64,000 nucleotides of DNA, from the IMG/VR virus record IMGVR_UViG_3300032236_001850, positions 52,392 to 116,391 of that record; one strand, given 5' to 3'. Below are positions 13,696-55,063 of this stretch, piece by piece. Numbering within the stretch: position 1 is the first letter of the stretch; every line of letters begins with the position of its first letter. The notes under the pieces were generated by a model. It was not told the DNA's origin. It saw only the letters and a program-made list of their open reading frames with translations, and ran no database searches. Both the position numbers and the translations under genes were made by a program. Source of the stretch: a virus.

Positions 13696-13938
13696 ATGGA
13701 AGATTCCTCTCAAAATCTAGAAATTCACGAGGCAGCGGATAGAATATATCCACTGATGGCCAATTACAGCTTTGATGCACAGGAAGAGATTATAAGGGAT
13801 TTGCTGAGGGTGATCTACACAAGAAAACTCGATAGTAAAAAATATCATAAAGAGCATCTGGATATAGCAACAGAGCAATCGGAAAAAATGAAAGAAAAAT
13901 ACCCATTTATATTTATAAAACAGGATGAAAAACTTTAG
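13696..13938 (+). CDS. hypothetical protein
   Basis: ORF track. Confidence 0.35.
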   Translation: MEDSSQNLEIHEAADRIYPLMANYSFDAQEEIIRDLLRVIYTRKLDSKKYHKEHLDIATEQSEKMKEKYPFIFIKQDEKL

Positions 13939-14773
13939 CCTTGGTGATCGTATGAAGGAATTCTACGAAGACCGTTTTAGATATTATGTTCCACGCAGAA
14001 CATACACATTAATCAGAATTGACGGGAAAGCCTTCCACACCTACACAAAAGGTTTGGAGTCACCATTTGATGCAGGATTAATTGCAGACATGAATGAGAC
14101 TACTGCCTACCTTTGTAAAAATATTCAAGGTGCAAAATTTGGCTATGTTCAATCGGATGAGATCAGCATACTTATTACTGATTTTGATGAGAGAGACACC
14201 CAGATGTGGTTTGACGGAAATCTACAAAAGATGGCTTCTGTTGCAGCTTCTATGGCTACATCAAAATTCAACGAATTAAGAGTAGTCAGAGTCCTTAGAA
14301 AATACGAATGCCAATTTGATACACCATTACAAATGGACACCGATTCGATATTAGAATTTCTTTCTAAGATTAAAAAAGCGGAGTTCGATGCTAGAGTATT
14401 TCAGATTCCACAAAAAAGCGAGGTTGAGAACTATTTCATCTTCAGACAACAAGACGGTACCAGAAACTCCGTCCAGTCGGTTGCTCAGAGCCTATATTCA
14501 CAAAGTGAATTAAATGGCAAGAAGGAGAAGGATATGCAGGAGATGATTTTTCAAAAAGGTATCAACTGGAATGATTACCACTTCAGAGAAAAAAGAGGTG
14601 GAATTATTGCTAAGGTTCCGACAATGATGGAGGGTAAGAATGGTCAGGTTGAAAGACTGAAATGGCAAATGATTCCAACTCCTATATTCACTCAGGAGAG
14701 AGAATTCATGGACATTATGATTCCAGAGTTTGAAATTAAATCACCTAAATCTGAAGAAGTTGAGGTACAATAG
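13925..14773 (+). CDS. Thg1-like protein (tRNA-His guanylyltransferase family, 3'-5' polymerase)
   Basis: N-terminal GDRMKEFYEDRFRYYVP...IRIDGKAFHTYTKG resembles Thg1 N-terminus (...RLDGRnFH.F). Confidence 0.55.
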   Translation: MKNFSLGDRMKEFYEDRFRYYVPRRTYTLIRIDGKAFHTYTKGLESPFDAGLIADMNETTAYLCKNIQGAKFGYVQSDEISILITDFDERDTQMWFDGNLQKMASVAASMATSKFNELRVVRVLRKYECQFDTPLQMDTDSILEFLSKIKKAEFDARVFQIPQKSEVENYFIFRQQDGTRNSVQSVAQSLYSQSELNGKKEKDMQEMIFQKGINWNDYHFREKRGGIIAKVPTMMEGKNGQVERLKWQMIPTPIFTQEREFMDIMIPEFEIKSPKSEEVEVQ

Positions 14774-17080: not shown

Positions 17081-18013
17081 ATGGTATTAAATCTTTCTGA
17101 ACCGTGCAGCTACGGTATCAAATTCAAAGTCTCTAAATTTCCTGATGGACAACAAGCCATCACTATATTAGAGGGAGAAGTTCTCAAATACAACATGTTT
17201 GAGAAATTGGAACCCGTGGTAATAAAATCAAGAATAACATCCTTCTTGGATCTTGAGTTAGTTATCTGTGCAAATAGAGCTCTTAAGGAACTTGGTGTTA
17301 AAGAAACTTCACTCGAGATATCATATTTATTGGGTGCAAGATCCGATAGAAAATTCGAAACCGGAAGCGTTAATTACATCAAGGAGATACTTGCTCCAAT
17401 CATCAACGCACAGAATTTTTCAAGAGTAACGGTACTTGATCCACATTCGGACGTAACTGAAGCGTGTATCAACAACTTCAAAAAGGAAACTCAATGGAGT
17501 CAAGGGTTGATAACATTTGTGCTACGTGATTATTTCGTCGGTGGAAGCACGGACTATTCCAAAATGAGATTAGTATCTCCGGATGCTGGTGCTCTTAAGA
17601 AAGTTTATGATGTTGCCGAGTCTATCGGGTATAGTCACGACATAGTTATAGCATCGAAACACAGAGATGTTAAAACTGGAAAAATCACACACACTGATGT
17701 TCCAATCTCGGTACATGACGTGGATAAAGATTTCTTCATACTGGATGATATTTGTGACGGTGGTAGAACCTTTATCGAGATTGCTAAGGCAATCAAAACG
17801 AAACAATCAATTTCCAGCGCGGTTCATCCAGAGAATCACGGTAAGATTTTTCTGGTTGTAACACATGGAATATTCTCAGCAGGTTTAAAACCACTAAATG
17901 AATATTTCGATGGTATTTATACAACGAATAGCTATGTTGATATGGCTGATCCTGAATTCTCATTAAGAAACGATAATGAGATGCACAAACTTAAACAATT
18001 AAAAGTTATCTAA
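17081..18013 (+). CDS. prs: ribose-phosphate pyrophosphokinase family protein (Prs; Adps-type ADP-ribose pyrophosphate synthetase not excluded)
   Basis: motifs FPDGQ, YLLGARSDRKF (YYGYARQDRK), LDPHS (LDLHA), VSPDAG, FILDDICDGGRTF (PRPP-binding loop), VTHGIFSAG. Confidence 0.75.
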   Translation: MVLNLSEPCSYGIKFKVSKFPDGQQAITILEGEVLKYNMFEKLEPVVIKSRITSFLDLELVICANRALKELGVKETSLEISYLLGARSDRKFETGSVNYIKEILAPIINAQNFSRVTVLDPHSDVTEACINNFKKETQWSQGLITFVLRDYFVGGSTDYSKMRLVSPDAGALKKVYDVAESIGYSHDIVIASKHRDVKTGKITHTDVPISVHDVDKDFFILDDICDGGRTFIEIAKAIKTKQSISSAVHPENHGKIFLVVTHGIFSAGLKPLNEYFDGIYTTNSYVDMADPEFSLRNDNEMHKLKQLKVI

Positions 18014-18235: not shown

Positions 18236-18496
18236 ATGAAAGGCATGTTAGAGATTATCATATTGGGAATTGTGTTAGTACTAGGATTCCTATTTATAGG
18301 AGACACTGAAATCACATTCTCTCCGTTCACCTTCAAAATGAATGCTCCATTAAATGCAGCAGGTTGGATCCTATTGTCAATTGGTGTTGCATTAATAAGT
18401 GCGAACGCTAGACAAAAAGGACGCAGAGAGGCTATTGATAACATCGTGGTTCACATCGATAGTAAAGGGACAACTAAACCGGAAGATCTTAAATAA
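18236..18496 (+). CDS. small membrane protein
   Basis: ORF track; two TM helices. Confidence 0.35.
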   Translation: MKGMLEIIILGIVLVLGFLFIGDTEITFSPFTFKMNAPLNAAGWILLSIGVALISANARQKGRREAIDNIVVHIDSKGTTKPEDLK

Positions 18497-19050
18497 TGGG
18501 AGCTGCTGTTTTAGGACACTCGGAGGAGAAACCAATCCACCCAGCATATCGGGAAGTAGTTGGTAATCTAATAACCATGGCACAACAAGGTAAATTCCAG
18601 GTGATCACACACGGATGCAATTGTTTCTGTACCATGAGAGCTGGAATAGCTCCACAGATGGCTAAGGCTTTCGGATGTGACAAGTTTCCAATGGAAGGTC
18701 ATCAACATAGAGGTGATTACAACAAACTCGGACAGATTGATTGGAAGATTAACACCTACACTGGTGGAACTGGTGAATTTGATTTTTTTGAATTTGACTT
18801 AGCTGTTGTTAATTTGTATTCCCAATATGGATTTGGACTAAATCATGATGGCGGGACAGCTAGACCTATCGATTATGATGCCCTCAGATTGGGCCTCAGA
18901 AAAATAAACCATCAATTCAAAGGTAGACACGTAGGACTCCCGAAAATAGGCGCAAAACTCGCGGGTGGAGATTGGGAGATTATAAAGGTGATCATCCAAG
19001 AGGAACTGAAAGATTGTAAAGTAACCGTTGTAATATACGATAAAGAATAA
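18496..19050 (+). CDS. macro-domain protein (putative ADP-ribose binding/hydrolase)
   Basis: HGCNCFCTMRAGIAPQMAKAFG resembles the NAAN..GGG..AI..AAG macro motif; VGLPKIGAKLAGGDWE resembles the FPaISTGiyGfP motif. Confidence 0.5.
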   Translation: MGAAVLGHSEEKPIHPAYREVVGNLITMAQQGKFQVITHGCNCFCTMRAGIAPQMAKAFGCDKFPMEGHQHRGDYNKLGQIDWKINTYTGGTGEFDFFEFDLAVVNLYSQYGFGLNHDGGTARPIDYDALRLGLRKINHQFKGRHVGLPKIGAKLAGGDWEIIKVIIQEELKDCKVTVVIYDKE

Positions 19051-22082: not shown

Positions 22083-22253
22083 ATGGCAAGAATAGAAATC
22101 AAAGATCTAAAATTAAGCTCAATCATTAAGAGGTGTGAGTCTTTAAAATTAGATCCAAAGAGGGTCAAAATAGAAACCGCAATATTCGAGGACATATCAA
22201 ACCCCGACATGTATTACACTAAACTATATTTAAAATATGAAAACAACAAATAA
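22083..22253 (+). CDS. small hypothetical protein (56 aa)
   Basis: hand-translated ORF MARIEIKDLKLSSIIKRCESLKLD...; overlaps start of next gene. Confidence 0.25.
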   Translation: MARIEIKDLKLSSIIKRCESLKLDPKRVKIETAIFEDISNPDMYYTKLYLKYENNK

Positions 22254-22716
22254 ATACGTATTTTTCTGGAATGGGATATACTCGCAGTGGCATAAAGCAA
22301 ATATGACCATTGACAGAATAGAATATAATTCATGTGAACAGTACATGATGCATCAAAAAGCAATGCTCTTTGGCGACGAGGAAACTGCAGAATTAATCAT
22401 GCAGGAAAAAAATCCAAGAGAGCAAAAGAAATTTGGTAGAAAGATTCAGGGATTCGACAAAGCAATCTGGGACAAGAACTCATTGGCCATAGTTTATCGT
22501 GGCAACCTTGCTAAGTTCTCACAGAACGAGGGTTTAAAAAAGGAGCTTCTTGCAACAGGAGACAGAATCCTTGTTGAAGCATCCCCGGTTGATAACATTT
22601 GGGGAATAGGTCTAGATGAAAAAGCAAAAGGTGTGGAAGATCCAGCAAATTGGAAAGGTCTAAACCTATTAGGTCAAGCAATAACACTTGTGAAAAATGA
22701 ACTTCGAGGAGCTTAA
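22237..22716 (+). CDS. NADAR-domain protein (YbiA-like)
   Basis: FFWNGIYSQWHKANMTIDRIEYNSCEQYMMHQKAMLFGD matches the NADAR signature (F..G..SNW....F..dg..y.s.EqymmaqKa..FgD). Confidence 0.65.
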   Translation: MKTTNKYVFFWNGIYSQWHKANMTIDRIEYNSCEQYMMHQKAMLFGDEETAELIMQEKNPREQKKFGRKIQGFDKAIWDKNSLAIVYRGNLAKFSQNEGLKKELLATGDRILVEASPVDNIWGIGLDEKAKGVEDPANWKGLNLLGQAITLVKNELRGA

Positions 22717-26608: not shown

Positions 26609-26676
26609 TTAAAAAATTTCCGAATAATTTTTTTTATTCGGAAATTTTTTTTATATTTGCCTAACAATTAAAGGAA

Positions 26677-27255: not shown

Positions 27256-28941
27256 ATGAATAAATTAAACGAAACTTTTAAAATCAACCCGCTTTACGAA
27301 TCTGACGGGTACAAAGTTGGCCACAAAGCAATGTTGGCAGAAAACACTTCAGTTGAATATTGGACTTGGATCCCTAGAAGCATCAAGTACATGCACCCAT
27401 CAATCGATGGTATCATGTCAGCAGGTGAACAGCTAGTTTGGAGATACATCCACAGCAACTTCCAGGAGTTATTCTTCAACAAACCAGTGGAAGCTGCAGA
27501 AAAATTCGGAAGAGACATGGCTGCATATCTTATGATGGATTACGACGCCGATCATTTTGTGGAACTTCATAAACTTGGATATCTTCCAGTTAGAATCAAA
27601 GCCATTCCTGAAGGGACATTTACAAAACCAAATATTCCACACATGACAGGAATCAACACAGTTGATGGTTATGCTTGGCTTGGACTTTACTTAGAAACTT
27701 TGGTTTCTAAGTTGGCTTGGCAATTACCAACTGCTGCTACCATCGCACACAGATTCAAACAGAATGCTGTTGAATGGGTTACCAAAACAGATCCAGAGAA
27801 TCTTTGGTTAGCTGATTTCATGTGTCACGATTTCCACAGTAGAGGTGGTAACCCTTTCACCTCGATTGCAGTTGGTTTAGGACATGCCATGAGTAATTCA
27901 GGTAGCGACACATTAAATGTTATTCCAGCATCAAGATACTACTACGATTTTGATGAGAACGAGGTTCCTGTCTATAGTGTTAATGCTTCAGAGCACAGTG
28001 TGACATGCACAGGTATTTTCTTCTACGAGAAAAAATTAAGAAGCGGTTTATTAAACCACGAAATTGTTTCTTACTACACAAGCACTGCACCTTCAGAGGG
28101 ATCAGTTCAGGATCCTGACTATTTAGCAATTGCTGAATTACTTAATCTTCGTGATTGGTTGGAAAAATTTCCTAAAGGTATTCTTTCAGTTGTTTCTGAC
28201 ACGATGAATCTATGGAAGGTGATCACTCACATCCTACCAAGACTTAAAAAAGAAATCCTTGCAAGAGATGGCAAATTGGTAATTAGACCTGACAGTGGAG
28301 ACCCAGTTGATATCATTTGTGGAACAACAACTATTAATAACAAGTGGGTAGAAGGAATACTTCCGCAATCTGAGTGTGAAAAGAAAGGTGTAATAGAACT
28401 TCTTTGGGACATCTTTGGAGGTGAAGAAACTTCAACTGGATACAAAAGATTAGATTCTCACATTGGAGCAATCTACGGGGATTCAATCAACTTAGAAAGA
28501 CAAATCGCTATCTACACAAGATTAGCAGATAAAGGATTTTCAGCTACAAACATCGTGGTTGGTGTTGGTTCTTACACGTATGTTATGCTAACGAGAGACT
28601 CCGCTGGATATGCAGCTAAAGGAGCTTGGTTCGCTACTAAGGAATTTAACGGTGTTGATCCTGATGGTCAAACCGATTATATCACAACGGAGTATAACAT
28701 CTACAAAGATCCAGTAACTGATAACGGTACTAAAAAATCATTAAAAGGTTTCTGCCAGGTATTCAATAATAGACCAGATGCTTTACCTCACGAGATTAAG
28801 TACGACGGTAAGGATCAATTGGAAGTAAACACCGAATGCACTAAGGATCAAGAAGCTGGTGGTTTATTAAATATCATCTACGAAGATGGTAAATTCTATA
28901 ATCAAGTCACACTAACAGAGATTAGAGAAAGATTAAAATAA
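27256..28941 (+). CDS. nadV: nicotinamide phosphoribosyltransferase (NAMPT/NadV family; Namat-type not excluded)
   Basis: 561 aa; N-terminal NPLYESDGYKVGHKAM (cf. TDSYKVTH), length and overall pattern typical of NAMPT. Confidence 0.8.
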   Translation: MNKLNETFKINPLYESDGYKVGHKAMLAENTSVEYWTWIPRSIKYMHPSIDGIMSAGEQLVWRYIHSNFQELFFNKPVEAAEKFGRDMAAYLMMDYDADHFVELHKLGYLPVRIKAIPEGTFTKPNIPHMTGINTVDGYAWLGLYLETLVSKLAWQLPTAATIAHRFKQNAVEWVTKTDPENLWLADFMCHDFHSRGGNPFTSIAVGLGHAMSNSGSDTLNVIPASRYYYDFDENEVPVYSVNASEHSVTCTGIFFYEKKLRSGLLNHEIVSYYTSTAPSEGSVQDPDYLAIAELLNLRDWLEKFPKGILSVVSDTMNLWKVITHILPRLKKEILARDGKLVIRPDSGDPVDIICGTTTINNKWVEGILPQSECEKKGVIELLWDIFGGEETSTGYKRLDSHIGAIYGDSINLERQIAIYTRLADKGFSATNIVVGVGSYTYVMLTRDSAGYAAKGAWFATKEFNGVDPDGQTDYITTEYNIYKDPVTDNGTKKSLKGFCQVFNNRPDALPHEIKYDGKDQLEVNTECTKDQEAGGLLNIIYEDGKFYNQVTLTEIRERLK

Positions 28942-28953
28942 TAATCAAAATAA

Positions 28954-28988
28954 AAAATCCCGAATATATCATTCGGGATTTTTTTTAT
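28954..28988 (+). terminator. rho-independent terminator after NAMPT
   Basis: aaaatcccgaat-atatc-attcgggatttttttt. Confidence 0.65.
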
Positions 28989-29022
28989 TCGAAGGGATTT
29001 CATATATTTGAGGAATAATAAA
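28981..29022 (+). promoter_or_regulatory. conserved upstream motif before 29037 (directly after terminator hairpin)
   Basis: ttttttttattcgaagggatttcatatatttgaggaat. Confidence 0.5.
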
Positions 29023-33022: not shown

Positions 33023-34219
33023 CTAAATATATCCTAGCTTTAATTTTATATCATCTATTGTCATATCCCATTTTTTTATTTTTCTGTATAAATGTTCATT
33101 CATTGCTAATTCACTAAAATTATTATAATTACATTTTACCCTGATGAGATAATCAATATGCTCATCCTTTGTTTTAAATCTTTTTAATTTTTTTGTATCA
33201 TTTATAATACCAAGAATCCGGCAATCAATCAAATTATATTTTTTAATTCTCTTATATAAATCAAAGTCATTTTTTTTGAGTTCACTCAATTTAACATTTT
33301 CACATTTTTCAATATCACCAGATCTTAGCATAAATAGAAAATTCAAATTTGGTTTATAGTTTATGATCTGATCCTCACTAACATAAATTCCTGTAATTCT
33401 TTTTATATCATCAATCTGGTTAATCAATTGGGTTTTAATATTTTCTATATAATTTCTATAGTTTTTAGACTTTTCGTCAATTACAAGTAATTCTACGTTA
33501 GCTTCTTTGCAAATTTTTATTTTTTCCTTGTCCTTCTCCTCAGTATGGAATCTTTTACCGTTATATTCCCAACCAATTCTCCATTTATCAAAATAGCAAT
33601 CAATTTCAAGAGGGTATATGACATTTCTATTATTAAAGCTACATTCAGTGCTCAAAATATATTCAAGAATATCCTTTAGTATTAATTGGGGTATGCTAAC
33701 AGATCCACCGATTTTTAAATTCTCAAGCTCATCCAATAAGCCAAATTTTCTTGCTTTGTTATACACGTAATTATCCATATAAGAAAACTCACTTCTTGTT
33801 GTGTATTTTAAAGCTTCGCCTCTAACAAAATCGTATGACACATCTCTTCCATTTTCTTTACATTTTTTAGCTCTTAAAAAATCTATTTCCTCTTTGGTCC
33901 TCTTTATTCCCATGCGACCAATTTTTCTTATAACAGATTTTCTTGTCTTGTCTAATTCTAGTGCAATCTCAGCATTTGATAAAATTCTATAATTATTTAA
34001 TATAAAAATCTCCTCATGCTCACTCCATTCGGTTTGCTTGTATTGATTTCTTTTCTTCCTTGATTTCTTCATAAAATCCTCATTTTTATAAACACCAATA
34101 GAATTTGCTTTAGCAATGAGTGTTCTCCTTTTTATGTTAAGAATGTTAGACAATTCATCGTTATCCGTTGAAGGGTACAATTGAATGAGTTTTTTAGTTT
34201 TTTCCTCGGTCCAGATCAT
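33023..34219 (-). CDS. putative homing-type endonuclease (N-terminal HTH repeats + PD-(D/E)xK/Vsr-like core)
   Basis: two W(T/S)EE...L..L....N.E(L/I) HTH-like repeats; DCYFDKWRIGWEYNGKRFH...ELLVIDE resembles D...E.K nuclease core of DUF559/Vsr; lone minus-strand gene. Confidence 0.4.
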   Translation of the reverse strand: MIWTEEKTKKLIQLYPSTDNDELSNILNIKRRTLIAKANSIGVYKNEDFMKKSRKKRNQYKQTEWSEHEEIFILNNYRILSNAEIALELDKTRKSVIRKIGRMGIKRTKEEIDFLRAKKCKENGRDVSYDFVRGEALKYTTRSEFSYMDNYVYNKARKFGLLDELENLKIGGSVSIPQLILKDILEYILSTECSFNNRNVIYPLEIDCYFDKWRIGWEYNGKRFHTEEKDKEKIKICKEANVELLVIDEKSKNYRNYIENIKTQLINQIDDIKRITGIYVSEDQIINYKPNLNFLFMLRSGDIEKCENVKLSELKKNDFDLYKRIKKYNLIDCRILGIINDTKKLKRFKTKDEHIDYLIRVKCNYNNFSELAMNEHLYRKIKKWDMTIDDIKLKLGYI

Positions 34220-34897: not shown

Positions 34898-35791
34898 ATG
34901 AGTGAAATTAAAAAACACATATCTGTTGTAGAGACAGATAATGGACACGGAATTCTGAGTTATCTAACAATGGAAATGTCAGATAAATTAAGTCCGGAGG
35001 GATTTCCAGAGATGGGATTGAAAATGAAAACAAAACACGTCGAGCTTGAAACACATCAAGTAAAATCGGTAATCAATTCCGAACAGATGCAAGATCTCGA
35101 AGCAATGGGAATTAACACTTTGGATACGTTAAATTCAACACTACTGAACGAATCCGAAATGGGACAGGAGAAGCAAATTTATAAAAAAATGAAATTGCTT
35201 GGTTATGAATCCAACAGAAAATTATGGACAAAGTTCCAAAATTTTGCACATAAATGGACGGGATATGTACCAATGTTAGATATCACAAAGGATGGAGCTT
35301 TATTAAGAAAGATGAATTTCATGTCACAGATCATAGCAACATCATCAAGACTTGGTCCTGCTAACTTTGTAATAATTGGTCCAGGTTTATTAGAACAGTT
35401 TGTTGCAGATCCAGGATTTGTGCACGTTCAACATGATTCTTCATCAACTCCGGGTAAAATCTATTTATGTGGTACATACAGAGATCAGTTTCAAATATTA
35501 ATAAATCCGGGACTTCCGTGGACGGATAAAAGAGTAGTTATGGGTAGGGACTCTTCGGTTCAAAATGAAGGCATATTTATGATTGAACACAAGGAAGGAT
35601 ATGTTTTTGATAAAAGAGAATATGTGAATCCAACATTTCTTACTCCTATGATCGAAATGGTACTAAGAAAAAGATATGCTTTAACGCACACGCAAAACGC
35701 AGCAAAAAATTACATAACATTAACATGTACTAATAAAAAACATAATGTTCTTACACACATTATTGAAAAGTACTTCAAAAAGAAAAAATAA
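34898..35791 (+). CDS. hypothetical protein
   Basis: ORF track, 297 aa. Confidence 0.45.
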   Translation: MSEIKKHISVVETDNGHGILSYLTMEMSDKLSPEGFPEMGLKMKTKHVELETHQVKSVINSEQMQDLEAMGINTLDTLNSTLLNESEMGQEKQIYKKMKLLGYESNRKLWTKFQNFAHKWTGYVPMLDITKDGALLRKMNFMSQIIATSSRLGPANFVIIGPGLLEQFVADPGFVHVQHDSSSTPGKIYLCGTYRDQFQILINPGLPWTDKRVVMGRDSSVQNEGIFMIEHKEGYVFDKREYVNPTFLTPMIEMVLRKRYALTHTQNAAKNYITLTCTNKKHNVLTHIIEKYFKKKK

Positions 35792-47086: not shown

Positions 47087-47153
47087 CTTCCAAATTATTT
47101 TTTTATTCAAAAAGGATTCCTTATATTTGCCTTGTAATTAAAAACAAAACAAA

Positions 47154-47231: not shown

Positions 47232-47308
47232 GGTCCTTAAACTTAATTGGCATGGCGCCAAACTGGCTTCTAAACCCAGCGTCTCCGGTTCGAGTCCGGT
47301 AGGGATCA
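47232..47308 (+). tRNA. tRNA (candidate anticodon CUA, amber-reading; assignment unverified)
   Basis: acceptor ggtcctt/agggatc (2 GU); canonical T-arm tccgg-ttcgagt-ccggt with G53-C61; stem ctgg(c)/(c)ccag around loop ttCTAaa with U33 and A37; D-arm not resolved by eye. Confidence 0.4.
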
Positions 47309-47655: not shown

Positions 47656-47807
47656 CGGAGAGTAGGGGTAACCCAAAAATAGCTAAGCTGTGTTAAGCGA
47701 CAGAACTGATAATCTGTTAGAAGCTAGGTTGGATGGCGGAAAGCTTATAATGTGAGAAATCATGTTATAACGTGGCAGACGCTAGATTAGAGAAAGGACG
47801 CGATCGG

Positions 47808-47886
47808 GGTTGGAATACCGATAATGGCGAAAATGGAAGAACCAACGCTTTAATTACCATTGTGGGTTCGAATCCCACTTCAACCA
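47808..47886 (+). ncRNA. tRNA-like element (alternative 5' end at 47727 with class-II D-arm start)
   Basis: acceptor ggttgga/ttcaacc, T-arm gtggg-ttcgaat-cccac; ggttgga-tg-gcg-gaa also at 47727; D/anticodon arms not canonical by eye. Confidence 0.3.
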
Positions 47887-47899
47887 CAAATCAACGATG

Positions 47900-48060
47900 T
47901 TAACTACCTGTGGTATCTACGGGGGCTAGGGAGAAACCTAGAAACTTACTTCGGTAAGTTAAGGAGCAAATGAGTTACAGTTCGGATTTAAACCTTAAAA
48001 AAGCTACTGCTTTAATGATATGTAGATTCAGAATAGCTTGTACTATTTAGGTACCTGAAC
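47900..48060 (+). ncRNA. structured RNA candidate (hairpins incl. UUCG tetraloop)
   Basis: ctagg-gagaaa-cctag hairpin; acttac-ttcg-gtaagt UUCG-tetraloop hairpin; no ORF; GC above surroundings. Confidence 0.25.
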
Positions 48061-48128
48061 CATTCAAAGAAGTTTTAGCAGATGATGATATTTTTTAGCT
48101 GCGGCGGAAATTTTTTGATTCATCAAAC

Positions 48129-48220
48129 AGCCAGGTAGGCACAAGGTCGGTTCGAGTCCGATGGAAGGTCATGGATGACGGGTAGCACCCTGCATGGAGG
48201 TTCGATTCCTTCACTGGCTA
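48129..48220 (+). tRNA. class-II-length tRNA-like gene (92 nt; possible tRNA-Ser, anticodon-arm placement unresolved)
   Basis: acceptor agccagg/actggct (6/7 bp), U8A9, T-arm ggagg-ttcgatt-ccttc; internal hairpin gtcgg-ttCGAgt-ccgat. Confidence 0.35.
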
Positions 48221-48351
48221 CAAAAACATAACAGGATTAAGTTCGACCTTGCCGAGATTAAGCCTCGTATCTTATATTTTTATTACGGTCTTTGCCGACC
48301 CAGAAATATCGGATATCGCTAGCGTGGTAGCGGGATGTTATGTTTTTATTT

Positions 48352-48633
48352 GATCAGATGGCGGAATTGGTAGACGCACCCCAAAAAACAAAGCATCTGA
48401 GGGGCGGTTAAATAAGGAGGACGCAGACTCCGAATAATCCAGAACAGCAAGGACGTAAGATGAAATGACATCTTCAGCCTTGTGTCGGAAGTTGGGAATT
48501 AACCCGTGATACCAGAATAACCGATGTTCCAAGGTAGGTTATTCTTTAGGTGTGAGATGAAGACCGTTAAGGTTGAGTGACACAAGGGATTGACAGGGTC
48601 CAAATCGTACAGGTTCGAATCCTGTTCTGATCA
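48352..48633 (+). tRNA. class-II tRNA candidate whose halves lie ~280 nt apart (possible intron or insertion-containing tRNA)
   Basis: gatcaga-tg-gcg-gaattggtaga-cgc (acceptor, U8G9, 3-bp D-stem, class-II D-loop) at 48352-48377; acagg-ttcgaat-cctgt T-arm + tctgatc acceptor strand (perfect 7-bp complement) + discriminator A at 48609-48633. Confidence 0.4.
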
Positions 48634-51968: not shown

Positions 51969-52697
51969 ATGGAATTAAAAAGAAATCCTAAAGCTCCTTC
52001 TAATAACAGAAGCTGGTCAACAATGGACGATTCAACATTAATCAAAATGGCAAGAGGTGGTGCTTCGGCTGCAGAGATTGCAAAAATCTTAGGAAGAACT
52101 GTTATGGCGGTAACTACAAGAAAACACAATCTTCATGTTGATGTTCGTTTAACATCATCTAAAGGTAAAGGTGTGGATGCACCAAAATCAGTTTCTGTTA
52201 GAAATAGAAACAAGAAAAAAGAATTGCCAGTTAGAGTTATTTCAAGAACTGCTGCACCACAACCCGTTAATGTTGTTTCAGCGGGAATCACAAAGGTAAC
52301 AAAACCAGTTTGGACTAAAGAGGAAGACGCTAAACTTTTATCTTTGGCTGCTGAGGGTAAATCAGCAAAGGAGATTGGAAAGATTCTAGGAAGAACATCA
52401 GTTGCTGTAACTGTTAGAAAATACGGATTGAATAAATCTCAAGAGTTAACTAACAAAAAAGCAAACGTAAAAGTTGACAACAAAGCCGACGAGAAAAGAT
52501 CTGCAATGTTGGCGAGAATGGAAAAAATGAGAGCTGCTAAGGGTAAAAATAAAAAATTACCAGTAGTGGAAGAAGCTGCTTCGGTTCCAGCTACCAAAAT
52601 GGAAAAAATTGTTTCTTCAGCTGAAAGCGATTTTGATGCTCTTTCAAGAATTGCTAAAAGTACAGGAGCTACAATCACAGTGGTTTTTGGAAAATAG
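51969..52697 (+). CDS. DNA-binding protein with two HTH repeats
   Basis: ORF track (51942); ATG 51969 fits motif spacing; repeats WSTMDDSTLIKMARGGASAAEIAKILGRTVMAVTTRK / WTKEEDAKLLSLAAEGKSAKEIGKILGRTSVAVTVRK. Confidence 0.5.
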   Translation: MELKRNPKAPSNNRSWSTMDDSTLIKMARGGASAAEIAKILGRTVMAVTTRKHNLHVDVRLTSSKGKGVDAPKSVSVRNRNKKKELPVRVISRTAAPQPVNVVSAGITKVTKPVWTKEEDAKLLSLAAEGKSAKEIGKILGRTSVAVTVRKYGLNKSQELTNKKANVKVDNKADEKRSAMLARMEKMRAAKGKNKKLPVVEEAASVPATKMEKIVSSAESDFDALSRIAKSTGATITVVFGK

Positions 52698-54349: not shown

Positions 54350-55063
54350 ATGATAACAAGATATTCAGATTTCGTTTTCGAGCCAAAGAAGGCAACAACC
54401 ACTCAAACTAAACCGGTTTTAGAGAGAAGAGAGCCTAAGAAGGATGAGAAACCCATGAATGAGGGTTTGCTTGACGATATAGTTTCATCAACTATGGAAT
54501 TATCTATTCCTGTTGATATAAGAAGAAATTATGGAGAGGACGAAGATGAGGATGAAACTGAAGATTACTACGAGGAGCCAAAAGAGAAAGTTATCACTGA
54601 CTTTGTTGATCCAGCTTATATAAAATCAACCAGACCCGCATTTATACCAGAACCTGAGGAAATAGAAGAGGAACCAGTAAATATGGAACCTCAGATTCCT
54701 ATGGATCCTCTTGCTTACAAAATATTCAGGGACAAAGCCGAATCATTTGAATGTAAGGTTATGATAGAGGGAAGCGATGTTAAAAACACAGCGGTTAGAC
54801 TTATACTGGAATCTGAAGAATGGAACATATTTTTCAAAGGCTCAATAAACGGTGGAATCTGCAGAATACCACTTAAAAAAATATCAATACTCTCTCCCGG
54901 ACTTAAGGGAATAATTAAATTAGAGGTTGTTGTCGATGGTGAGATTTTCTATCCTTGGTACGAAACATTCCAAGTACAAAACAGTAAGAATGTAAAGGTA
55001 GAAGTACTAACACAAAAGCAAAATAACCAGGCACAATCAGGCACTAGAGTTAGAATTGCTTAA
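54350..55063 (+). CDS. hypothetical protein (acidic linker + C-terminal beta-rich domain), possibly fibre-associated
   Basis: ORF track; immediately upstream of fibre gene. Confidence 0.4.
   Translation: MITRYSDFVFEPKKATTTQTKPVLERREPKKDEKPMNEGLLDDIVSSTMELSIPVDIRRNYGEDEDEDETEDYYEEPKEKVITDFVDPAYIKSTRPAFIPEPEEIEEEPVNMEPQIPMDPLAYKIFRDKAESFECKVMIEGSDVKNTAVRLILESEEWNIFFKGSINGGICRIPLKKISILSPGLKGIIKLEVVVDGEIFYPWYETFQVQNSKNVKVEVLTQKQNNQAQSGTRVRIA

Follow-up and report, generated by a model that had tools for sequence, protein, structure and literature searches.

No polymerases other than the Thg1-like proteins (TLPs) are known, to our knowledge, to work in the 3′-to-5′ direction. Eukaryotic Thg1 adds a non-templated guanosine at position -1 (G-1) opposite A73, in tRNA-His only, and the HINNLYN motif is the mark of these true tRNA-His guanylyltransferases. 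For the TLP of Bacillus thuringiensis (BtTLP), the documented activity is the templated 3′-5′ repair of 5′-truncated tRNAs (PMC3061083, PMC3701042). Anantharaman, Iyer and Aravind described bacterial Thg1 operons with polynucleotide kinase (PNK), and sometimes with a Macro domain and an RNA ligase; a Thg1 gene was also noted in phage 201phi2-1, for which either tRNA-His maturation or anti-defence RNA repair was suggested (PMC2904730). The paper on phage XacN1 (PMC5852040) counts the TLP, along with a CCA-adding enzyme, PNKP/Hen1 and Pth, among the genes by which this phage processes tRNAs. Here we analyse a gene of this family in a 64-kb stretch of viral DNA (IMG/VR record IMGVR_UViG_3300032236_001850, positions 52,392 to 116,391; hereafter the window), where an open reading frame (ORF) at positions 13925-14773 encodes a bacterial-type TLP.

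Identity, active site and fold of the Thg1-like protein

The ORF is complete, with 282 codons followed by a TAA stop, and its translation reads EDRFRYYVPRRTYTLIRIDGKAFHTYTKG at the N-terminus, or MKNFSLGDRMKEFYEDRFRYYVPRRTYTLIRIDGKAFHTYTKG over a longer stretch, as quoted in the first-pass annotation of this DNA, which had proposed a Thg1-like 3′-5′ nucleotidyl-transferase. That identity is borne out by family, sequence and fold matches, so that both the observation and its interpretation as a Thg1-like protein stand, whereas the claims about genomic context, taken up below, are borne out only in part. Of the two Pfam families to be expected, PF04446 (Thg1) matches at 87.6 bits (cut-off 29.2; E=8.7e-25) and is covered over profile positions 2-130 of 130, whereas PF14413 (Thg1C) gives a weak, sub-threshold match (E=0.062). 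PHROG 4717 (tRNA-His guanylyltransferase) aligns residues 4-268 with profile positions 3-241 of 250 (E=2.5e-81), and a search of NCBIfam matched no model. Among structures in the PDB, BtTLP (4kgk_A) is found at E=3.6e-57 from the sequence of the window TLP alone and at E=9.5e-75 from a 16-sequence profile; the C-terminal half matches BtTLP residues 126-235 at E=5.5e-18. Judged by these alignments, the ORF is that of a bacterial-type TLP with an intact active site.

As the start, we prefer position 13925 over the Met10 of the public JGI call (P0001), because G7, D8 and R9, upstream of Met10, are kept in all relatives and down to BtTLP. The JGI call omits nine N-terminal residues (13925-13951), this triplet included, and so loses D8, the equivalent of BtTLP D6, a contact to the incoming GTP; the exact 282-residue product is absent from the records, where the JGI version begins at Met10. 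When the gene was compared with its syntenic orthologues in four related contigs (L002, L004, L086 and L088), the ratio of non-synonymous to synonymous substitution rates (dN/dS) was 0.03-0.08, and 0.02-0.10 over all ten pairs, at near-saturated dS values of about 0.8-1.6. These low ratios indicate strong purifying selection on the TLP gene.

Residues were mapped through printed alignments to BtTLP and the residue roles described for it (PMC3701042), with conservation taken from a 16-sequence alignment. The catalytic carboxylates, which the first-pass annotation had singled out for checking, are all three there: D33 and D78, equivalent to the metal-binding D30 and D75 of BtTLP, and E79 (BtTLP E76), aligned respectively to D29, D76 and E77 of the human enzyme. 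The residues that bind the incoming nucleoside triphosphate (NTP) in BtTLP are likewise found, as R31 (R28) and R157 (R131) and, from the partner subunit, K102 (K99′) and R19 (R16′), as are E15 (E12), which forms salt bridges to R28 and R131, S77 (S74), which contacts the activating NTP, and the other nucleotide contacts D8, H38 and T41 (D6, H35 and T38). Position 46 aside, all mapped residues are invariant or nearly so in the alignment (R31, K102, R157, R19 and S77 are invariant), and the motifs RIDG and SDE[IY]S occur in 120/120 of the closest homologues.

The sole deviation in this list is Ser46, which stands in place of the lysine that positions ATP for adenylylation (BtTLP K43, ScThg1 K44). 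Among the same 120 homologues, this position is held by Arg in 96, Ser in 16, Lys in six and Tyr in one, with one sequence unmatched by the motif, and all 16 of the serines fall in a clade at least 86% identical to the window TLP. In BtTLP, the K43A change lowers adenylylation about 10-fold and leaves guanylylation, and thus GTP activation, unchanged (PMC3701042). Because Ser46 replaces the ATP-positioning lysine and K43A spares GTP activation, we infer a GTP-biased activation and not a loss of function; for the same reason, Ser46 is no argument against activity.

As modelled with AlphaFold2 (pLDDT 71.4, pTM 0.69), the window TLP is predicted to have a polymerase-like palm fold with a Thg1 C-terminal domain. 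In a Foldseek search of this model against the PDB, 32/32 significant matches were Thg1 or TLP chains, with 4kgm_B as the best one (E=4.7e-18) and template modelling scores, normalised by target, of up to 0.75 among these top 32. The stretches that align with BtTLP, residues 5-119 and 152-264, are separated by 32 residues without counterpart, an insertion that varies in length and sequence among homologues and in which helices are predicted at a pLDDT of about 60-80.

The Thg1 palm fold is related to GGDEF and Cas10, and the Foldseek matches that follow the Thg1/TLP chains are GGDEF domains and cyclases (E of about 0.03-0.2, that is, 0.03 or worse). Together with the insertion and Ser46, which set the window clade apart, these weak matches could suggest a palm domain recruited for some other nucleotidyl-transfer or signalling reaction, or an enzyme acting on non-tRNA 5′ ends, be it on other RNAs or through a cap-like addition. 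We consider such a role highly improbable: all the NTP- and metal-binding residues specific to Thg1 and TLPs are kept, including D8, R19 and K102 of the partner subunit, tRNA-repair TLPs outscore all other matches by a wide margin, and PADLOC assigns the TLP to no defence system or family.

Subtype and proposed activity

Where eukaryotic Thg1 has HINNLYN, the C-terminal half of the window TLP, which also carries Arg157, has TRNSVQS, and BtTLP has SKNSISM; the position of the eukaryote-type activation residue N161 aligns to Ser. The matches to yeast, Candida and human Thg1 (1.5e-8 to 5e-4) are far weaker than that to BtTLP, and the archaeal TLP of Methanosarcina acetivorans (MaTLP) is matched at E=2.5e-11 by sequence and 3.6e-17 by profile. 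Because HINNLYN is absent and BtTLP is far closer than any eukaryotic Thg1, the window TLP is placed, on sequence grounds, with the bacterial and archaeal TLPs of templated 5′-end repair and not with the dedicated tRNA-His guanylyltransferases.

The product name in all database annotations is nevertheless tRNA-His guanylyltransferase, and the first-pass annotation had entertained the maturation of a phage tRNA-His lacking G-1. On this view, a tRNA-His of phage or host origin that lacks G-1, or loses it when RNase P acts, would receive it from the enzyme and become chargeable by HisRS. In vitro, BtTLP adds G-1 opposite C73 with a kcat/KM of 5500 M-1 s-1, equal to that of yeast Thg1 (PMC3061083 Table 1), and therefore G-1 addition may be one of the reactions of the window TLP; BtTLP, however, prefers truncated tRNAs 5-160-fold (PMC3061083). 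Such a kinetic preference, with Watson-Crick-templated addition, is documented for BtTLP and MaTLP only. Large phages with a TLP often carry many tRNAs, tRNA-His among them, as does XacN1, yet the tRNA-His of this TLP-bearing phage has a genome-encoded G-1 opposite C73, so that in this single example a post-transcriptional addition is not obviously needed. As for the window, it had been described as coming from a phage with its own tRNA set, a claim that finds no support in these 64 kb of a genome of probably about 435 kb: ARAGORN finds no tRNA or tmRNA in them, nor any canonical tRNA in the related contigs L001 and L002. There is no tRNA-His in the window or in the flanks of its relatives, the remaining ~370 kb of the genome being outside the scope of the analysis, and no tRNA-like element of the window has a GUG anticodon or C73. 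With HINNLYN missing as well, dedicated tRNA-His maturation appears unlikely as the function of this gene.

With moderate confidence, we instead favour a functional bacterial-type TLP whose templated 5′-end repair would contribute to the upkeep of the tRNA pool during infection. The enzyme, which probably acts as a dimer or tetramer, would bind the acceptor/elbow end of a tRNA, or of a tRNA-shaped RNA, that lacks one or a few nucleotides of its 5′ strand. A 5′-monophosphate would be activated with a purine NTP, predicted to be mainly GTP given Ser46 in place of the ATP-positioning lysine, or a 5′-triphosphate would be used directly. Two-metal catalysis at D33 and D78 would then add Watson-Crick-templated nucleotides 3′-to-5′, with the 3′ strand of the acceptor stem as the template, and would go on to the completion of that stem, with G-1 addition opposite the C73 of a tRNA-His as one possible special case. 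Templated 5′-end repair of tRNA-shaped RNAs is thus the most likely mechanism, probably with GTP activation. As for its biological role, the enzyme likely serves to maintain or repair the pool of tRNAs while a very large T4-like phage infects its host. A role in repairing tRNAs against host defence is plausible too, and was already put forward for phage Thg1 in 2010 (PMC2904730).

tRNA-like RNAs and neighbouring genes

The window is phage DNA, with a tail-fibre gene and genes of the Gp23 family, NAMPT, PRPP-synthetase-like, NADAR and homing-endonuclease-like types (Table 1). The window maps to the 75-kb JGI contig Ga0372598_1100212. A 237-residue protein encoded at 54350-55063 is identical to one on a 434,721-bp ENA contig (ERZ28594702, KRAE22-1_SAMEA4981798 scaffold_7), whose sequence across island B, compared by eye, also agrees with the window; the DNA thus probably stems from a T4-like jumbo phage with a genome of about 435 kb. 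Deposited phages contain no near-identical DNA. The TLP gene is embedded in a long series of small co-directional genes without known function, and its position is kept in five further related contigs.

The first-pass annotation had also linked the enzyme to tRNA islands and to PTH2. The islands are real, although they hold non-canonical tRNA-like RNAs and lie 9.6 kb upstream (island A) and 33 kb downstream (island B) of the TLP gene. As for PTH2, neither Pfam scans of the ORFs, Pfam tables nor a tblastn search with the PTH2-like protein of L002 finds one in the window, and the window has no SmpB by Pfam scans or by tblastn with the SmpB of L002. In that relative, positions 545-1230, just upstream of its tRNA-like island, hold an SmpB gene (Pfam PF01668) as well as an ORF that faintly resembles PTH2, in a region where ARAGORN and Rfam detect no tmRNA.

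The elements of the islands have an acceptor stem, a D arm and a T arm, and their anticodon arm is absent or replaced by insertions of 35-209 nt. The Rfam tRNA model gives a single match above its gathering score in the window, to an anticodon-less element of island A that recurs, with a length of 57-59 nt, in six genomes. It starts some 6-10 nt after the stop of a conserved 82-residue ORF, the spacing varying by genome, scores 34-48 bits with Rfam tRNA, and is not called by ARAGORN. Across the six genomes, 98.8% of the cells are paired, against 44-65% in slid controls, and four pairs show compensatory changes; an exact-pattern search of IMG/VR for more such elements returned the L002 contig only. 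In the further tRNA-shaped genes of island A, variable modules stand in for the anticodon arm: a branched 60-nt insert in the window, a long hairpin capped by UUCG in L004, and inserts of at least 100 nt elsewhere. These genes end in a discriminator A followed by CAAA or CTAA and do not encode CCA. Island B holds a series of odd tRNA-like genes, and the sequence of L091 across it, compared by eye, matches that of the window.

Several other readings of the islands were discarded. A group I intron or a tmRNA has no Rfam match even with permissive filters, and the low-threshold ARAGORN calls of tmRNA are not credible. Recoding of TAG by the CUA-anticodon element is unsupported, TAG being the stop of 18/96 ORFs. 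Mismatches at acceptor positions 1-3, as a sign of 5′ editing, amount to one 1-72 mismatch among the six orthologous elements.

Two conserved non-coding blocks lie between tRNA-like elements, and neither matches an Rfam family; the shorter one, of 115 nt, has covarying terminal stems (GGATGG/CCATCC versus GGAATAG/CTATTC). A promoter-like motif, TTTTTTTAWTC-N10-16-TATATTTG, occurs in five copies on the + strand of the window, with zero expected from shuffles, and two of the copies are placed shortly ahead of the small ORFs upstream of islands A and B.

The natural substrates of the window TLP could be these very RNAs, whose 5′ ends the enzyme would mature or complete in place of those of genuine tRNAs, since what a TLP recognises is the acceptor/elbow and not the anticodon. 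The TLP gene and island A occur together in 6/6 genomes of the phage clade, and the anticodon-less element is structurally kept, with the compensatory changes just described. Among more distant loci, the TLP gene of a marine relative (L025) directly follows three tRNA-like repeats, and the TLP gene of L041 is inside a tRNA cluster; moreover, MaTLP is described as binding tRNA without reading the anticodon (PMC4820378). Against this speak the distances of the islands from the TLP gene and the TLP loci of the clade of 60-66% identity, which have no tRNA-like element within 10 kb. The acceptor stems, besides, are complete as encoded, and with a single 1-72 mismatch (in L002) the tRNA-like RNAs do not systematically require 5′ editing. 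A TLP devoted to these RNAs therefore seems decidedly unlikely. In the marine relative (L025:9245-9909; TLP 61% identical), the repeats measure 93, 103 and 81 nt and have one acceptor stem in common (AGTCAGG/CCTGACT), and ARAGORN calls only the third, as tRNA-Arg CCG.

To survey the neighbours, ORFs at distances of up to 5 kb from the TLP gene were clustered across TLP loci. The most persistent one is a Macro-domain gene, present at about 28 loci on either side of the TLP gene and 0.5-7.4 kb away from it, for TLP identities of 47-100%; its product is a possible functional partner of the TLP. HAD_SAK_2 is the HAD phosphatase of the "Swiss-army-knife" RNA-repair proteins; its gene is found near the TLP in 11 loci and not in the window, and YqeY in two loci. 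Related phages also carry RNA-repair genes in the accessory region of the TLP, and in XacN1 and RAS14 an RNA ligase lies about 4 kb from it. The Macro and HAD_SAK_2 neighbours echo the published bacterial neighbourhoods of Thg1, PNK, Macro and RNA ligase (PMC2904730). In the window, the Macro-domain gene belongs to a cluster of NAD/ADP-ribose genes (PRPP-synthetase-like, Macro, NADAR and NAMPT) that looks like a phage set for NAD salvage or against ADP-ribosylation. Two ORFs that may be related to mobile elements by their matches, one transposase-like, immediately upstream of island A, and one homing-endonuclease/D5-like, are also listed in Table 1.

From these surroundings, a more specific function can be imagined, in which the TLP is tied to the anticodon-less tRNA-like RNAs of its clade or, as a counter-defence, rebuilds the acceptor-stem 5′ ends of tRNAs cut by host nucleases, with the help of the Macro protein. 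We regard it as quite unlikely. If true, either a tRNA-like RNA substrate or an anti-nuclease repair would for the first time assign a physiological substrate to a TLP from outside the eukaryotes.

Templated 5′-end repair for the upkeep of the tRNA pool, the explanation we favour, has to face several points that weigh against it. The searchable literature offers no functional study of a phage TLP, whether on activity, substrate or phenotype, and the physiological substrates are unknown even for bacterial TLPs (PMC3061083). Canonical tRNAs occur within the flanks at only 4/83 TLP loci, and no gene for PNK, RNA ligase or HAD_SAK_2 is found in the window. The synteny recurs among related T4-like phages and may reflect common descent and not functional coupling, and the Macro gene may belong with the adjacent NAD/ADP-ribose genes and not with the TLP. 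The structural model, finally, is of moderate confidence at its pLDDT of 71.4.

Table 1. Features of the TLP gene and its surroundings (window positions, unless a related contig is named)
Feature	Position	Strand	Evidence or remark
TLP, complete ORF	13925..14773	+	ORF list; Pfam, PHROG and PDB matches; dN/dS
N-terminal catalytic (palm) domain, residues 8-162	13946..14410	+	Pfam Thg1 2-130; BtTLP 3-116 at 7.6e-36
Asp33 codon (RIDG motif), metal-binding carboxylate by alignment	14021..14023	+	BtTLP D30, human D29; invariant in 16/16 homologues
Ser46 codon, site of BtTLP Lys43	14060..14062	+	Alignment; clade-specific substitution
Ser77-Asp78-Glu79 codons (SDE motif): NTP-contacting serine, second and third carboxylates by alignment	14153..14161	+	Alignments; BtTLP S74/D75/E76
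Variable, mostly helical insertion relative to BtTLP, residues 120-151	14282..14377	+	Gap between aligned stretches
C-terminal half, residues 152-264	14378..14716	+	Alignments to BtTLP 126-235; Pfam Thg1C weak
Anticodon-less tRNA-like element (island A)	4271-4327; L002:2302-2358; L004:3033-3091; L086:86-144; L087:82-140; L088:78-136		Above-threshold Rfam tRNA match in the window (57 nt)
Further tRNA-shaped genes (island A)	4530-4654; L004:3293-3382, 3630-3782; L002:2371-2462, 2706-2845; L086:346-469, 717-869		Window element: sub-threshold Rfam tRNA match
Conserved 115-nt non-coding block	4884-4998		Similar to L002:2893-3010 and L004:4010-4125
Island A, approximate extent	4271-4995		
Island B of odd tRNA-like genes	47232-48634		Matches L091:2883-4285
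Island B element	47232-47308		UUCUAAA loop (anticodon CUA), aberrant D arm; sub-threshold Rfam tRNA match, 23.6 bits
Island B element, tRNA-like	47808-47886		Within sub-threshold Rfam tRNA match 47727-47886
Conserved non-coding block	47888-48125		Similar to L002:2466-2700
Island B element	48129-48221		Two T-arm-like hairpins
Island B element	48352-48633		Type-II-like D arm, 209-nt insertion; ARAGORN -i calls an intron
Promoter-like motif copies	3964-3995; 5030-5061; 26629-26659; 28980-29010; 47098-47129	+	
Transposase-like ORF	3066-3947		PHROG 10081, 6.6e-22
PRPP-synthetase-like protein	17081-18013		PHROG 619
Macro-domain protein gene	18496..19050	+	PDB 2fg1/2afc at 1.4e-10; macrodomain 5e3b at 2.7e-5; PHROG 335
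NADAR	22237-22716		Also PADLOC PDC-M42C, 5.8e-46
NAMPT	27256-28941		PHROG 448, 9.3e-136
Homing-endonuclease/D5-like ORF	33023-34219	-	
Gp23-family gene	34898-35791		

Distribution and comparison with known systems

Searches with tblastn find the TLP family in 163 deposited phage records, with a best identity to the window TLP of 47.5%, and the hosts of these phages include Bacillus, Prevotella, Caulobacter, Mycobacterium and Erwinia. In a protein collection at 90% identity, 7955/8000 scored candidates match the TLP at E <=1e-5; among clusters at 50% identity, 5230 match at E <=1e-3 and 1138 at E <=1e-30. The family, its occurrence in phages and the hypothesis of repair or anti-defence are all already published, and the annotation as such is routine. 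What the window TLP adds is a phage lineage that is strongly conserved and abundant in the environment, and in which serine has naturally taken the place of lysine in the ATP-activation site. Placed beside Macro and NAD-salvage genes, in a genome with anticodon-less tRNA-like RNAs, it is a reasonable candidate for a reverse polymerisation that would keep tRNAs intact during infection.

The eukaryotic Thg1 enzymes (yeast, Candida albicans 3WBZ, human 3OTB) belong to the same superfamily and use the same two-metal 3′-5′ chemistry with equivalent carboxylates, but are only about 20% identical to the window TLP and carry the HINNLYN motif that it replaces. MaTLP, solved with tRNA-Phe (5AXK-5AXN), is a templated 5′-end repair enzyme with a common fold and catalytic core, though archaeal and far more distant (about 26% identity) than BtTLP. 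Among phages, the so-called tRNA-His guanylyltransferases of PHROG 4717 are members of the same family, the best of them matching the window TLP at 42-47% identity; examples are Bacillus phage TsarBomba gp154, Xanthomonas phage XacN1 ORF126/585, and the proteins of Stenotrophomonas phage RAS14 and Pseudomonas phage 201phi2-1. These phages are also large, and some carry tRNA sets, RNA ligase, PNKP or Pth; in contrast, the window TLP has no canonical tRNAs or RNA ligase adjacent to it and comes from an uncultured T4-like lineage of about 435 kb known only from metagenomes.

The closest described relative is BtTLP (4KGK/4KGM), to which the window TLP is about 42% identical along almost its entire length. 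Both proteins have in common the fold, as far as it can be modelled, the three carboxylates, the NTP-binding Arg and Lys residues and the lack of HINNLYN, and a templated 3′-5′ repair of 5′-truncated tRNAs would be expected of the window TLP too. Unlike BtTLP, it is encoded by a phage, its residues 120-151 form a variable insertion of 32 residues, Ser46 stands for Lys43 (hence the predicted GTP bias) and Ser185 for Met158, and some 18 residues make up an acidic tail at its C-terminus.

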